Shown: one piece after another, positions 1,376 to 10,809 of the stretch
How the letters are laid out: every line of letters starts with the position of its first letter
Position numbering within the stretch: position 1 is the first letter of the stretch
Assembly: GCF_024700885.2 (NCBI RefSeq)
Contig: NZ_CP117016.1
Length of the DNA stretch: 64,000 nucleotides
Strand: one strand, 5' to 3'
DNA from: Escherichia coli
GTDB lineage: Bacteria; Pseudomonadota; Gammaproteobacteria; Enterobacterales; Enterobacteriaceae
Notes under the pieces: model-generated
What the model was told of the DNA's origin: nothing
Seen by the model: only the letters and a program-made list of their open reading frames with translations
Databases searched by the model: none
Made by a program: the position numbers and the translations under genes

Positions 1376-1501
1376 TTTAAGTCGAACACAATAAAAATTT
1401 AATTCAGCCTTCGTTTAGGTTACCTCTGCTAATATCTTTCTCATTGAGATGAAAATTAAGGTAAGCGAGGAAACACACCACACCATAAACGGAGGCAAAT
1501 A

Positions 1502-1597
1502 ATGCTGGGTAATATGAATGTTTTTATGGCCGTACTGGGAATAATTTTATTTTCTGGTTTTCTGGCCGCGTATTTCAGCCACAAATGGGATGACTAA
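1502..1597 (+). CDS. mgtS: small membrane protein MgtS (31 aa)
   Basis: Hand-translated short ORF MLGNMNVFMAVLGIILFSGFLAAYFSHKWDD, below the ORF-track length cutoff; hairpin plus T-run follows at ~1625-1664. Confidence 0.85.
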   Translation: MLGNMNVFMAVLGIILFSGFLAAYFSHKWDD

Positions 1598-1672
1598 TGA
1601 ACGGAGATAATCCCTCACCTAACCGGCCCCTTGTTACAGTTGTGTACAAGGGGCCTGATTTTTATGACGGCG

Positions 1673-1772
1673 AAAAAAAACCGCCAGTAAACCGGCGGTG
1701 AATGCTTGCATGGATAGATTTGTGTTTTGCTTTTACGCTAACAGGCATTTTCCTGCACTGATAACGGATCGT
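1673..1772 (-). ncRNA. mgrR: sRNA MgrR (PhoP-dependent), boundaries approximate
   Basis: Minus-strand intrinsic terminator (hairpin ccgccggtttactggcgg + T8) at 1673-1698; PhoP-box-like direct repeat GTTTAA-N5-GTTTAA on minus strand at 1804-1821; expected position between mgtS and dgcZ. Confidence 0.6.
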
Positions 1773-1803
1773 TGACACAGTAGCATCAGTTTTCTCAATG
1801 AAT

Positions 1804-1821
1804 GTTAAACGGAGCTTAAAC
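1804..1821 (-). promoter_or_regulatory. PhoP-box-like direct repeat upstream of mgrR
   Basis: Minus-strand sequence gtttaa gctcc gtttaa read directly. Confidence 0.5.
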
Positions 1822-2712
1822 TCGGTTAATCACGTTTTGTTCGTCAATAAACATACAGCGATTTCTTCCGGTTTGCTTACCCTCATACATTGCCCGGTCC
1901 GCTCTTCCAATGACCACATCCAGAGGCTCTTCAGGAAATGCGCGACTCACACCTGCAGTCACGGTAATGTTGATATGCCCTTCAGAATGTGTGATGGCAT
2001 GGTTATCGACTAACTGGCAAATTCTGATACCTGCACGACATGCTTCTTCATCATTAGCCGCTTTGACAATAATGATAAATTCTTCGCCACCGTAGCGATA
2101 AACCGTTTCGTAATCGCGCGTCCAACTGGCTAAGTAAGTTGCCAGGGTGCGTAATACTACATCGCCGATTAAATGCCCGTAGGTATCATTAACCAATTTA
2201 AATCGGTCAATATCCAACAACATTAAATAAAGATTCAGAGGCTCAGCGTTGCGTAACTGATGATCAAAGGATTCATCAAGAACCCGACGACCCGGCAATC
2301 CCGTCAAAACATCCATATTGCTACGGATCGTCAGCAAATAAATTTTGTAATCGGTTAATGCCGCAGTAAAAGAAAGCAACCCTTCCTGAAAGGCGTCGAA
2401 ATGCGCGTCCTGCCAGTGATTTTCAACAATAGCCAGCATTAATTCCCGACCACAGTTATGCATATGTTGATGGGCAGAATCCATTAGCCGAACGTAAGGT
2501 AATTCATCGTTATCGAGTGGTCCCAGATGATCAATCCACCGACCAAACTGGCACAGTCCATAAGAATGGTTATCCGTTATTTCTGGCTTACTGGCATCTC
2601 TCGCGACTACGCTGTGAAACATACTTACCAGCCACTGGTAGTGGGCATCGATAGCCTTATTGAGATTTAACAAGATGGCATCAATTTCCGTTGTCTTCTT
2701 GATCATTGCCAC
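1816..2712 (-). CDS. dgcZ: diguanylate cyclase DgcZ (zinc-sensing)
   Basis: 298-aa ORF containing the GGEEF motif (RYGGEEFIII). Confidence 0.9.
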   Translation of the reverse strand: MAMIKKTTEIDAILLNLNKAIDAHYQWLVSMFHSVVARDASKPEITDNHSYGLCQFGRWIDHLGPLDNDELPYVRLMDSAHQHMHNCGRELMLAIVENHWQDAHFDAFQEGLLSFTAALTDYKIYLLTIRSNMDVLTGLPGRRVLDESFDHQLRNAEPLNLYLMLLDIDRFKLVNDTYGHLIGDVVLRTLATYLASWTRDYETVYRYGGEEFIIIVKAANDEEACRAGIRICQLVDNHAITHSEGHINITVTAGVSRAFPEEPLDVVIGRADRAMYEGKQTGRNRCMFIDEQNVINRV

Positions 2713-2960
2713 TCCTTTTTCACAGTTCCTTGTGCGCGCTATTCTAACGAGAGAAAAGCAAAATTACGTCAATATTTTCATAGAAATCCGAAGTTATGAG
2801 TCATCTCTGAGATAACATTGTGATTTGAAACAAAATCAGCAGATAAAAAAGTGTTTAATTCTGTAAATTAAGCCTGCATTATCGCAATTAAAAGGATGAC
2901 AAATAGCATAACCCAATACCCTAATGGCCCAGTAGTTCAGGCCATCAGGCTAATTTATTT

Positions 2961-3353
2961 TTATTTCTGCAAATGAGTGACCCGAACGACGGCCGGAGCG
3001 CTTTTCTTATCCAGACTTCCGCTAATGTTGATCAGCTGGTCCGGCTGAACTTCTCGTCCATCAAAGACTGCCGCAGGAATAACAACATTAATTTCACCGC
3101 TCTTATCGCGAAAAACGTAACGGTCCTCTCCTTTGTGAGAAATCAAATTACCGCGTAGTGAAACCGAAGCGCCATCGTGCATTTTTTTTGCGAAATCAAC
3201 GGTCATTTTTTTTGCATCATCGGTTCCGCGATAGCCATCTTCTATTGCATGAGGCGGCGGTGGCGCTGCATCCTGTTTTAATCCGCCCTGGTCATCTGCC
3301 AACGCATAAGGCATGACAAGAAAACTTGCTAATACAATGGCCTGAAATTTCAT
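2961..3353 (-). CDS. ydeI: periplasmic OB-fold stress protein YdeI
   Basis: 130-aa ORF with signal peptide; K-12 neighbourhood. Confidence 0.85.
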
Positions 3354-3595
3354 ACTGACTCCTTAATTGCGTTTGGTTTGACTTATTAAGTCTGGTTGCT
3401 ATTTTTATAATTGACAAATAAGAATACTGCCAATTGTTATAAGGCATTTAAAATCAGGCAACTAGCTGTCAAATATTCAGAGAATTTTACTCACTAAAGT
3501 AAGAAGAAGATTAAAGAGTCTTAAACATATTTCAGAACAATCAGATTTATAAATTTGAAAATTATTATAACGGAAGGGTATACAAAAAAAGTAAT

Positions 3596-3673
3596 TTTGC
3601 TGGCGACTGCGAAACGGCATTCGCATTAGCGGTGAAGTTTGCCCTCACCCAGCTGCTGCAATTACTGCTATAA
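3596..3673 (+). pseudogene. ydeJ: possible 3' remnant of ydeJ (CinA/PncC-like)
   Basis: Only ~25 codons (…DCETAFALAVKFALTQLLQLLL*) resembling a PncC-family C-terminus; the 364-bp ydeI–dcp gap cannot hold the full gene; convergent hairpin follows. Confidence 0.35.
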
Positions 3674-3717
3674 CGAGGCTGGTCTGGCGATAAATCCAGG
3701 CCAGCCATTGGTGGTGT

Positions 3718-5763
3718 TTATACGTTCAAGCCACGATGTTGCAGCATCGGCATAATCTGAGGTGCCTTACCGCGCCATTGTCGATACAGGCGTTCCAGAT
3801 CTTCGCTGTTACCTCTGGAAAGAATCGCCTCGCGAAAACGCCGCCCATTTTCACGCGTTAATCCGCCCTGCTCAACAAACCACTGGTAACCATCATCGGC
3901 CAACATTTGCGTCCACAGATAAGCGTAATAACCTGCGGCATATCCGCCACCAAAAATATGGGCGAAATAACTGCTGCGATAGCGTGGCGGTATAGCAGGA
4001 AGATCCATATTTTCCGCCACCAGCGCCCGCAATTCGAAATCATCGACATCCTGCATTGCTTCGTTTTCTTCCAGGCAATGCCAGCGCATATCGAGAAGTG
4101 CGGCGCTAAGCAGTTCGCTCATCTCATACCCTTTATTGAACAGGCTGGCATTACGCATTTTCTGTTGCAGTTCATCAGGCATTGCTGCCCCGCTCTGATA
4201 ATGCCGGGCGTAGCGAGCGAATACCTGCGGATGCGTTGCCCAGTGTTCGTTGATTTGCGACGGAAATTCGACAAAATCACGCGGCGTGTTGGTGCCGGAA
4301 AGCGTGGCATAACGCTGGCGGGCAAAGAGGCCGTGTAGCGTATGACCAAATTCATGGAATAAGGTTATGACATCATCCCAGAGTAACAACGCAGGCTCAC
4401 CGGCAGCGGGTTTCTGATAATTGCAGACGTTATAAATTACCGGATGCGTTTCATTCAGCGTTGATTGCTCAACAAAATTGCCCATCCATGCACCGCCGCT
4501 TTTTGAATCACGGGCGAAGAAATCACCGTAAAATAACGCCAGCCCCACGCCATTATGATCAAAAATTTCCCATACACGAACGTCAGGATGGTAGACAGGA
4601 ATATCAAAACGTTCGACAAACTTAATACCGAAGAGCTGATTCGCAGTCCAGAATACGCCTTCATTCAACACCGTGTTTAATTCGAAATAAGGCTTGAGCT
4701 GCGCTTCATCGAGATCGAATTTCTCACGTCTTACCTGCTCGGCATAAAATGCCCAGTCCCACGGCTGCGCGCTAAACCCGCCCTGCTGCTTATCGATAAC
4801 CGCCTGTATGGAGGCTAATTCATCGCTCGCACGTTGACGCGCCGCTGGAACAATTTCCCGCATAAAGTTGAGTGCTGCTTCTGGCGTTTTTGCCATCTGA
4901 TCGGCGATTTTCCATGCGGCATAATGAGGGAAACCAAGCAGTTTCGCCTGCTGCGCGCGGATCTCCACCAGACGTTGAATGATAGCGCGGGTATCATTGG
5001 CATCATTTTTTTCCGCTCGCGTCCAGCCCGCAGTGAACAGTTTTTCACGCGTCGCACGATCGCGCATTTCGGCAAGCGCCGGTTGTTGGGTGGTATTCAG
5101 CAGCGGAATCAGCCATTTGTTATCCAGACCTTTCTCGCGAGCCGCCTCTGCCGCCAGCGCAATCTCTTGCTCACTTATTCCTGCCAGCTGCGCGATATCG
5201 TTCACAACCAGACCGCCGGATTTATTTGCTGCCAGTAACCGCTGGTTAAACTGGCTGGTCAGGGTCGCAGCTTCTGTATTCAGTACTTTTAATTTTGCTT
5301 TATCAGCTTGCGCAAGTTTGGCTCCGGCAAGGACAAAACGTTGATGAATGACCTCCACCAGGCGGATGGATTCACTATCAAGCCCCAGGGATTCTCGGCG
5401 CTGCCAGACAGCATCTACCCGCGCGAATAATTCACCGTTCAGATAGATATCATTAGCCAGTTCCGCCAGTTCAGCGGAAAACTGTTCATCAAGACGCTGT
5501 AATTCATCATTGGTATGCGCCGCAGTCATCGCAAAAAAGACGCTGGTAACGCGGGTAAGTAATTCTCCGCTTTGTTCCAGTGCCAGAATAGTATTGTTGA
5601 AATCAGGCGTTTGCGGGTTAAGCGCGATGGCAGTAATTTCTGCCCGCTTTTGCAGCATTCCCTCATCGAATGCCGGGCGATAGTGATGATTGGAAATTTG
5701 ATCAAAATGGGGAGCCAGATACGGCAGTGTGCTTTGCACAAGGAAAGGATTCATTGTTGTCAT
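3718..5763 (-). CDS. dcp: dipeptidyl carboxypeptidase II (M3 peptidase)
   Basis: HEFGH zinc motif in translation; start trimmed to MTTMNPF (681 aa) within the 703-aa track ORF. Confidence 0.92.
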   Translation of the reverse strand: MTTMNPFLVQSTLPYLAPHFDQISNHHYRPAFDEGMLQKRAEITAIALNPQTPDFNNTILALEQSGELLTRVTSVFFAMTAAHTNDELQRLDEQFSAELAELANDIYLNGELFARVDAVWQRRESLGLDSESIRLVEVIHQRFVLAGAKLAQADKAKLKVLNTEAATLTSQFNQRLLAANKSGGLVVNDIAQLAGISEQEIALAAEAAREKGLDNKWLIPLLNTTQQPALAEMRDRATREKLFTAGWTRAEKNDANDTRAIIQRLVEIRAQQAKLLGFPHYAAWKIADQMAKTPEAALNFMREIVPAARQRASDELASIQAVIDKQQGGFSAQPWDWAFYAEQVRREKFDLDEAQLKPYFELNTVLNEGVFWTANQLFGIKFVERFDIPVYHPDVRVWEIFDHNGVGLALFYGDFFARDSKSGGAWMGNFVEQSTLNETHPVIYNVCNYQKPAAGEPALLLWDDVITLFHEFGHTLHGLFARQRYATLSGTNTPRDFVEFPSQINEHWATHPQVFARYARHYQSGAAMPDELQQKMRNASLFNKGYEMSELLSAALLDMRWHCLEENEAMQDVDDFELRALVAENMDLPAIPPRYRSSYFAHIFGGGYAAGYYAYLWTQMLADDGYQWFVEQGGLTRENGRRFREAILSRGNSEDLERLYRQWRGKAPQIMPMLQHRGLNV

Positions 5764-5899
5764 TTTCTTCTCCTGAACGCGAGGTGTTCCATAGCGTAGG
5801 CTTACTGATAACGGAGTGCAATCTTGCAAACCAGTATTACCCGCTCTTAAGCATCACGTGCTATGTTATTGACACACAAAAGCGTTGAGGAACAGTGAG

Positions 5900-6646
5900 A
5901 TGATCGTTTTAGTAACTGGAGCAACGGCAGGTTTTGGTGAATGCATTACTCGTCGTTTTATTCAACAAGGGCATAAAGTTATCGCCACTGGCCGTCGCCA
6001 GGAGCGGTTGCAGGAGTTAAAAGACGAACTGGGAGATAATCTGTATATCGCCCAACTGGACGTTCGCAACCGCGCCGCTATTGAAGAGATGCTGGCATCG
6101 CTTCCTGCCGAGTGGTGCAATATTGATATCCTGGTAAATAATGCCGGTCTGGCGTTGGGCATGGAGCCTGCGCATAAAGCCAGCGTTGAAGACTGGGAAA
6201 CGATGATTGATACCAACAACAAAGGCCTGGTATATATGACGCGCGCCGTCTTACCGGGTATGGTTGAACGTAATCATGGTCATATTATTAACATTGGCTC
6301 AACGGCAGGCAGCTGGCCGTATGCCGGTGGTAACGTTTACGGTGCGACGAAAGCGTTTGTTCGTCAGTTTAGCCTGAATCTGCGTACGGACCTGCATGGT
6401 ACGGCGGTGCGCGTCACCGACATCGAACCGGGTCTGGTGGGTGGCACCGAGTTTTCCAATGTCCGCTTTAAAGGCGATGACGGTAAAGCGGAAAAAACCT
6501 ATCAAAATACCGTTGCATTGACGCCAGAAGATGTCAGCGAAGCCGTCTGGTGGGTGTCAACGCTGCCTGCTCACGTCAATATCAATACCCTGGAAATGAT
6601 GCCGGTTACCCAAAGCTATGCCGGACTGAATGTCCACCGTCAGTAA
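5900..6646 (+). CDS. ydfG: NADP-dependent 3-hydroxy acid dehydrogenase (SDR)
   Basis: TGATAGFG cofactor motif and YxxxK; start trimmed to MIVLVTG. Confidence 0.9.
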   Translation: MIVLVTGATAGFGECITRRFIQQGHKVIATGRRQERLQELKDELGDNLYIAQLDVRNRAAIEEMLASLPAEWCNIDILVNNAGLALGMEPAHKASVEDWETMIDTNNKGLVYMTRAVLPGMVERNHGHIINIGSTAGSWPYAGGNVYGATKAFVRQFSLNLRTDLHGTAVRVTDIEPGLVGGTEFSNVRFKGDDGKAEKTYQNTVALTPEDVSEAVWWVSTLPAHVNINTLEMMPVTQSYAGLNVHRQ

Positions 6647-9384: not shown

Positions 9385-10752
9385 TTAAAGACTTCTGGAA
9401 GGTTGCGCAGCTCTGACAACACGCGGTTGATCTTCCGCAGCGTCTTCCAGCGCACTTAAATCACGGTCTTTCACTTCTGGCATTTTCAGCGCAGAGATTA
9501 AACCAATCACTGAATATGCCATGATCATAATGGCGATCGGATACCAGGATTCCGTCATGGTGCAGAAAATACCCGCCAGGATAGGACCAAAACCGGAAGC
9601 GATAAGACCACCAATTTCTTTAGAAATCGCCATCCGGGTAAAGCGGTTTTTACAGCCGAACATTTCTGCCATGGTAATGTTTTCCAGAGCAAATAATCCC
9701 AGCACCGCACAGTTATGAATCACAATCAGTGCAACCATAATGGTGCTCGGGGCATAGCTTTTATCTACGATGATAGAAAGCATTGGCCATGCCAGCACAA
9801 TCGCGGAGGTATTCATAATAATATACGGGATCCGGCGACCAATTTTATCGGATAACCAACCAAGGAACGGAATGGTCATAAAGCCGAGAATCGAACTGAT
9901 CATCAATGCATCTGTTGGAATTGCTTTGTTAAACAATAACGTCTGTACTAAATAGCCTGCAAGGAAAGTCTGAATTAAACCGGAGTTACCAGCCTGACCA
10001 AAACGCAGCCCTGTTGCCAGCCAGAAGGATTTGCTCTGGAACATGCTACCAGCAGGTGCAGGTTTTGCTGTCGGTTGGTTGCTGTCGTTAACCTTCTCAA
10101 AGACCGGGCTTTCTTTAAGATTCATACGCAACCAGATAGCAAAGACCATCACGACAACGCTCGCCAGAAACGGTATACGCCATCCCCACGCCAGCAGTTC
10201 TTCTTTACTGAGAATGAAGAACATAAAGGCCCAGATTGCCGTTGCGCTTAAGGTTCCGCAGTTAGTTCCCATAGCCACAAATGAGGAGATAATTCCGCGC
10301 TTACCTTTTGGTGCATATTCCGCCAGCATCGTGCCGGCACCGGAAATTTCCGCGCCTGCCCCCAGCCCCTGAATAATACGCAGCGTCACCAGCAAAATTG
10401 GCGCAAACACACCAATTTGTGCATAGGTCGGCAGCACACCAATTAAGGTGGTACAGATCCCCATCATAGTGATGGTAATAAAGAGCACTTTTTTACGCCC
10501 GATTCTGTCGCCCATTTTGCCGAAAATAAATGCTCCGACAATACGCGCCACATAACCTGCACCGTAGGTTCCCATTGCCAGAATTAACGCCATTGCCGTT
10601 GATGATTCAGGAAAAAATATTTCATGAAACACTAACGCTGCGCCGAGCGAATATAACTGGAAATCCATAAATTCAAGCGCAGTGCCCAGCCATCCCGATA
10701 CTGCTGCTTTCACCAAATCCTTAGTGCTTCTTTCGTGTTTTTCTATTGTCAT
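9385..10752 (-). CDS. ydfJ: MFS transporter YdfJ (intact)
   Basis: 455-aa multi-pass ORF directly adjacent to rspB with no intervening prophage. Confidence 0.85.
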   Translation of the reverse strand: MTIEKHERSTKDLVKAAVSGWLGTALEFMDFQLYSLGAALVFHEIFFPESSTAMALILAMGTYGAGYVARIVGAFIFGKMGDRIGRKKVLFITITMMGICTTLIGVLPTYAQIGVFAPILLVTLRIIQGLGAGAEISGAGTMLAEYAPKGKRGIISSFVAMGTNCGTLSATAIWAFMFFILSKEELLAWGWRIPFLASVVVMVFAIWLRMNLKESPVFEKVNDSNQPTAKPAPAGSMFQSKSFWLATGLRFGQAGNSGLIQTFLAGYLVQTLLFNKAIPTDALMISSILGFMTIPFLGWLSDKIGRRIPYIIMNTSAIVLAWPMLSIIVDKSYAPSTIMVALIVIHNCAVLGLFALENITMAEMFGCKNRFTRMAISKEIGGLIASGFGPILAGIFCTMTESWYPIAIMIMAYSVIGLISALKMPEVKDRDLSALEDAAEDQPRVVRAAQPSRSL

Positions 10753-10809
10753 AATGGTTATCTCTAAAAAAGAGGTAAGATGCGTACTACTTACTCGCCG
10801 TTATTGGTA

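Follow-up and report, generated by a model that had tools for sequence, protein, structure and literature searches.

YdeJ consists of a CinA domain only and is a paralogue of the NMN deamidase PncC/YgaD. A profile search with the E. coli K-12 protein places it among the CinA/PncC-domain proteins (PF02464), and the K-12 record names the product 'PF02464 family protein YdeJ'. According to a published report (PMC3855486), YdeJ does not act as an NMN deamidase and its active-site blocks contain substitutions. Salmonella carries ydeJ as well (PMC7387798, PMC3855486), where the gene, as RdsA, has a supercoiling-sensitive promoter and its deletion raises negative supercoiling (PMC7387798). In automated PGAP annotation YdeJ is called '2-oxo-tetronate isomerase' via NF002972, as at 2169-2687 of the intact allele L004 and in many other matches. 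PMC12506659, citing Zhang et al. 2016, assigns the published E. coli 2-oxo-tetronate isomerase to b2739, and the name looks like a widely propagated mislabel when applied to YdeJ. In K-12 MG1655 (NC_000913.3), ydeJ (b1537, UniProt P31131) occupies 1,624,773-1,625,291 on the + strand (519 nt, 172 aa) within the 837-bp gap that separates the end of ydeI at 1,624,497 from the end of dcp at 1,625,335.

The locus described here lies near the start of a 64-kb stretch of E. coli DNA, referred to as the window, which covers the mar-ydeE-dgcZ-ydeI-dcp-ydfG part of the chromosome and whose first 12 kb run in the order ydeE - mgtS/mgtT/MgrR - dgcZ - ydeI - dcp - ydfG - rspR - ydfZ - ydfI - ydfJ. The left neighbour of the gap is an intact ydeI (2961-3353, - strand, 130 aa), which shares 97.7% nucleotide identity with K-12 ydeI and whose product, a periplasmic OB-fold stress protein, matches the YdeI equivalog NF007471 end to end (257 bits) together with Pfam PF04076 (BOF). 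The right neighbour is an intact dcp (peptidyl-dipeptidase; 3718-5763, - strand, stop codon 3718-3720), 97.6% identical to K-12 dcp over the 2046 nt compared and so named in the RefSeq annotation of strain 1190, which is identical to the window over 2961-4100. The genes beside the gap are 97.6-99.2% identical to those of K-12. Elsewhere in this segment mgtS (1502-1597, +) and the overlapping mgtT open reading frame (1597-1701, +) are both present and conserved, as is the antisense small RNA MgrR (1591-1804, -; Rfam STnc560, RF01407, 282 bits). Further along, ydfJ is a complete 455-codon open reading frame (9385-10752, -) directly adjoining rspB and rspA (10810-13088, -). In K-12 the ydfJ/rspB junction is interrupted by the Qin prophage, which is absent from the window there (9385-13088).

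Measured from the ends of the two reading frames, the space between ydeI and dcp spans 3354-3717 and is exactly 364 bp, the length given in a preliminary description of this DNA. That description expected a ydeJ of about 170 codons at this position in K-12, supposed that its 5' part had been deleted here, and allowed that an equally short gap in K-12 would undo the argument. The K-12 gap is more than twice as long, ydeJ is intact within it with 172 codons, and alignment of the two regions by blastn, together with an explicit in-silico deletion, bears out a loss of the 5' part of ydeJ with both flanks collinear. A reading in which K-12 has its ydeJ elsewhere, and 364 bp is simply the normal distance from ydeI to dcp, can be discarded outright, given the placement of b1537 in NC_000913.3 and the presence of the missing segment in 3618 of 5426 complete E. 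coli genomes.

The same two approaches, blastn and in-silico deletion, place the junction. On the left, window 3300-3591 aligns with K-12 sequence to the left of ydeJ, up to 38 bp before its start, at 92.5% identity; on the right, window 3594-3780 aligns with the final 80 nt of ydeJ, the following hairpin and the 3' end of dcp at 93.6% identity over 188 nt. The scar itself (3592-3595, no strand) marks the absence of K-12 1,624,738-1,625,212, a segment of 475 bp missing between A3594 and T3595. Removing that segment in silico (positions 5739-6213 of the K-12 locus L001) yields the window's junction at 3591-3599 bar one base: the product AAAAAGCAATTTTGCTGG and the window sequence AAAAAGTAATTTTGCTGG differ only at T3592 (C>T against K-12), the sole mismatch at the reconstructed junction. 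The lost 475 bp comprise 440 nt of coding sequence and the 35 bp that precede the GTG start codon of ydeJ, the latter being a part of the loss that the preliminary description had not noted. The position of the breakpoint is uncertain by 1 nt, an A, which is the only sequence common to both breakpoints; microhomologies of 2 nt ('AT') or 3 nt ('GCA') at the junction were considered and rejected. Direct repeats of at least 6 nt are absent from the breakpoints, where the longest k-mer common to the two K-12 neighbourhoods is 5 nt and lies off the junction, and no mobile-element (IS), foreign or extra sequence was found at the junction. Because at most 1 nt is shared, with no longer repeat and no foreign sequence, the event is best described as a simple illegitimate deletion rather than one mediated by an IS or a repeat, and it may have originated by illegitimate recombination or replication slippage.

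We are highly confident that the short gap records a single old and inherited 475-bp deletion of ydeJ that left a remnant between ydeI and dcp. This deletion removed the ribosome-binding region, ydeJ codons 1-146 and two bases of codon 147, and it joined the ydeI-ydeJ spacer straight to codon 148. What is left of the gene (3596-3673, + strand) is its last 25 sense codons, FAGDCETAFALAVKFALTQLLQLLL, followed by the stop codon TAA, in agreement with the C-terminal-like tail of about 25 codons noticed previously. Searched with K-12 YdeJ by tblastn, the window returns only residues 147-172 at 3593-3670 (81% identity, E = 6e-8), and no other copy of ydeJ was found in its 64 kb. A complete CinA domain (about 155 residues in an open reading frame of about 172 codons; NF002972, PF02464) is accordingly absent from the window, and the ydeJ start codon and translation initiation region have both been removed. 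The remnant is non-coding: upstream of the tail its frame contains a stop and no ATG, GTG or TTG. With no in-frame start and this upstream in-frame stop, the 25 left-over codons would not be translatable as YdeJ.

Relative to codons 148-172 of K-12 ydeJ, the remnant has 21 of 25 residues identical, with 5 differences, 4 non-synonymous and 1 synonymous, counts that are very small. Three intact ydeJ alleles compared among themselves show 2-5 non-synonymous against 4-6 synonymous codons over all 172 codons. The pattern in the remnant fits the direction expected for relaxed constraint, tiny as the counts are, and the remnant is probably drifting neutrally. It has the attributes of a pseudogene, namely homology to part of a gene, orthologous position and conserved flanks (93.6% nucleotide identity over 188 nt), and PGAP annotates the equivalent of window 3593-3673 (81 nt) as a pseudogene, 'incomplete; missing N-terminus', in strains 1190 and elppa4. 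It is an ordinary gene remnant that already stands as a pseudogene in public PGAP annotation, and in that respect there is nothing new in it. No paper on the ydeJ deletion was found in the literature searched for ydeJ with phylogroup, ExPEC or pseudogene.

The polarity of the event rests on a domain argument together with the literature. Residues 19-171 of K-12 YdeJ match positions 3-155 of the 155-position PF02464 (CinA) profile; since this match runs through the final residues of the protein, the tail is the true in-frame end of the CinA domain, and its being an integral part of that domain argues for a deletion here rather than an insertion in K-12. The opposite order of events, in which the short form is ancestral and ydeJ was inserted in K-12-like lineages, would need an insertion that completed an open reading frame onto a pre-existing in-frame CinA tail, and Salmonella has ydeJ (PMC7387798). 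Escherichia sp. MOD1-EC7003, the sole other Escherichia species retrieved, is likewise without an intact ydeJ, which would favour an ancestral short form; its tail, however, is different and shorter (13 codons) and is placed on the 3' end of dgcZ, as expected of an independent deletion of ydeJ. We consider an ancestral short form very improbable and retain a deletion of ydeJ as the preferred reading. The scan of species representatives that was made with a degenerate pattern for the 3' end of dcp returned one Escherichia locus, its other ten matches being chance hits in unrelated organisms.

Other rearrangements are found at this locus. In MOD1-EC7003 (L016 10246-10685) the 3' end of dgcZ is joined directly to the last 13 ydeJ codons, the hairpin and dcp; the strain has eamA and then the MgrR region, is without ydeE, mgtS and ydeI, and has lost the greater part of both dgcZ and ydeJ. 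This loss is independent of the one in the window and larger. Sporadic IS1-associated deletions occur in two E. coli strains: strain 7_12_15B has an IS1 in place of the stretch from mgtS to ydeI and keeps ydeJ (L019 1748-2445), and strain EC1 has an IS1 in place of the stretch from mgtS to the 3' end of dcp (L020 3249-3945). E. coli IAI39, of phylogroup F, contains two IS629-family transposase copies, both of them interrupted by a group II intron (ltrA; L017 4319-7802 and L018 6561-10044). Its min/dad region is found about 200 kb past tyrR, which shows that, compared with K-12, the chromosome has undergone a large rearrangement.

Of the 5426 complete E. coli genomes probed with a 60-mer centred on the junction, 1630 (about 30%) contain it; junction and intact segment together account for 5248 genomes. 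Carriers come from humans, dogs, chickens, cattle and water and include O25b:H4-ST131 and an O18:H1 strain. About 20 genomes, elppa4 among them, match the first 12 kb of the window at 100% identity, and strain 1190 is identical over 2961-4100. It is scarcely conceivable that the short gap is an artefact of assembly, or that it arose recently in this strain alone, in the face of an identical junction in 1630 independent complete genomes and of the roughly 20 genomes that match the window perfectly over 12 kb. The ydeJ deletion is an old, inherited allele, present in about 30% of the complete genomes rather than confined to this strain. Among strains whose phylogroup has been published, PCN033 comes closest, with 99.0% identity; it was assigned to group D by the 2000 triplex PCR, a method that cannot split D from F or G (PMC4578781).

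A second deletion is nested on the first. ST131 genomes (L003 2501-2709, L005 2403-2611) have the same ydeJ junction and, in addition, a further 502-bp deletion corresponding to window 3050-3551, which takes out the entire spacer together with two-thirds of ydeI, from its 5' end, and leaves two head-to-head pseudogene stubs 38 bp apart. The junction of this 502-bp deletion occurs in 1039 of the 5426 complete genomes. Its carriers include UPEC 536, IHE3034, a Nissle derivative, O6:K2:H1 and APEC O1:K1:H7, all of which we take to be B2 strains, the phylogroups of carriers being read from strain names only. Since the second deletion is nested on the same ydeJ junction, the window displays an intermediate state, with ydeJ lost and ydeI kept, which is found in roughly 590 genomes; in the sampled B2 lineages a second deletion would then have destroyed ydeI as well. 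Compared with K-12, the ydeJ tails of the window and of ST131 have four substitutions in common and one private non-synonymous change each. The shared substitutions point to a single origin of the ydeJ deletion, with independent drift thereafter; B2 and related lineages may have received it by vertical descent or through recombination.

Between ydeI and the scar, the window retains part of the divergent ydeI-ydeJ intergenic region (3354-3591, no strand), which is 90.8% identical to L001 5499-5735 of K-12. Mismatches to K-12 number 1/60 and 3/60 on the ydeI side and 8/62 and 11/60 near the junction; in the intact allele L004 the same bins have 0, 2, 3 and 1 mismatches, and in intact alleles generally the stretch equivalent to the former ydeJ leader (window 3480-3591) is nearly invariant. 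In the window this former leader is about 85% identical to K-12, the ydeI-proximal spacer about 96% and the flanking genes 97-99%. The gradient looks as though the ydeI promoter side of the spacer has been maintained and the former ydeJ leader side abandoned, and the divergence near the junction could be decay that followed the deletion or could belong in part to an old divergent haplotype. With ydeI intact and its proximal upstream sequence conserved, both the gene and its promoter side are probably still functional. RcdA has been reported to bind the ydeI-ydeJ spacer at a box TTGTnnACA (PMC3535384); neither the gap nor the K-12 spacer contains an exact match, and only one-mismatch sites occur.

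Downstream of the tail, between the ydeJ and dcp stop codons, lies a G+C-rich hairpin (3677-3706, no strand) with an 11-pair stem (3677-3687 / 3696-3706), which is the convergent hairpin mentioned in the preliminary description. It begins 4 nt past the ydeJ stop and ends 11 nt short of the dcp stop. Its folding energy in the window is -25.7 kcal/mol on the + strand, with flanks, and -18.2 kcal/mol on the - strand, where there is one A.C mismatch, and z is about -3.4 to -3.5 against shuffled sequence. In K-12 the hairpin folds at -25.9 kcal/mol (+) and -24.9 kcal/mol (-). Of the features of an intrinsic terminator, the stable G+C-rich stem-loop is present and a U run 3' of the stem is not, neither strand being flagged in a scan for at least 5 T in 8; the tails that follow the hairpin are AUUGGUGG (+ strand) and UCGUUAUA (- strand). 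We infer that the hairpin is a shared, bidirectional terminator of the convergent ydeJ/dcp pair, and its retention suggests that it still ends the dcp transcript.

These retained elements raise the prospect that the remnant is not inert, either because the old ydeJ promoter drives a short non-coding RNA ending at the hairpin or because tail and hairpin are selected together as a dcp terminator. The hairpin is kept in both the window and the ST131 types, which represent one shared deletion, and in the independently deleted MOD1-EC7003, and with only 35 bp lost before the start codon a promoter could survive. However, the former ydeJ side is the most decayed part of the spacer (11/60 and 8/62 mismatches), and in the ST131-type allele the upstream region is wholly deleted. 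Promoter-like sites on the + strand of the gap number 2 against 2.2 expected in shuffled sequence, so there is no excess over chance, and an Rfam search of window 1400-6000 (E <= 1) gave no match in the gap, its only matches being STnc560/MgrR at 1591-1804 and a chance lncRNA match. The hairpin is, moreover, weaker on the dcp-sense strand than in K-12 (-18.2 against -24.9 kcal/mol). An active remnant is therefore unlikely in our estimation, and a neutrally drifting remnant beside a working ydeI is preferred.

More speculative is the notion that loss of YdeJ/RdsA was adaptive or physiologically consequential rather than neutral decay. We regard it as unlikely; its background is the reported feedback of the Salmonella protein on DNA supercoiling. 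If true, supercoiling might be set to a different level, or envelope-stress behaviour be altered, in lineages without ydeJ, which include the major extraintestinal pathogenic lineages ST131, ST73 and ST95. In a weaker variant, the orphaned promoter, tail and hairpin may encode a lineage-specific small RNA. The immediate significance of the deletion is low and lies in correct comparative annotation, with roughly a third of sequenced E. coli being without YdeJ. The two nested junctions, first of ydeJ and then of ydeJ and ydeI, nevertheless offer markers that are clean and easy to score, by which groups of E. coli lineages can be told apart. They also advise caution when work on Salmonella RdsA and supercoiling, or on YdeI, is carried over to E. 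coli, where B2 strains such as ST131 and Nissle are without both genes and window-type strains are without ydeJ only.

Set against the described systems, the locus is closest in layout to that of K-12, with the ydeJ sequence in the same place between ydeI and dcp and followed by the same hairpin. The difference is that codons 1-147 and the ribosome-binding region are gone from the window, which can therefore encode no CinA domain here. The relationship to Salmonella ydeJ/rdsA is that of an orthologous gene family in which the Salmonella member is functional; in the window strain the gene is destroyed and an RdsA-type function would be absent. The RefSeq pseudogenes CNQ48_RS26200 (strain 1190), G6P89_RS27750 (p11A) and K9U07_RS02265 (elppa4) have the same sequence at the same coordinates relative to dcp and are labelled 'incomplete; partial in the middle of a contig; missing N-terminus'; nothing separates them from the window remnant. 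The B2-type double remnant of ST131, 536, IHE3034 and Nissle shares the identical ydeJ junction and the same tail substitutions, and the window departs from it in being without the 502-bp deletion and in keeping ydeI intact.
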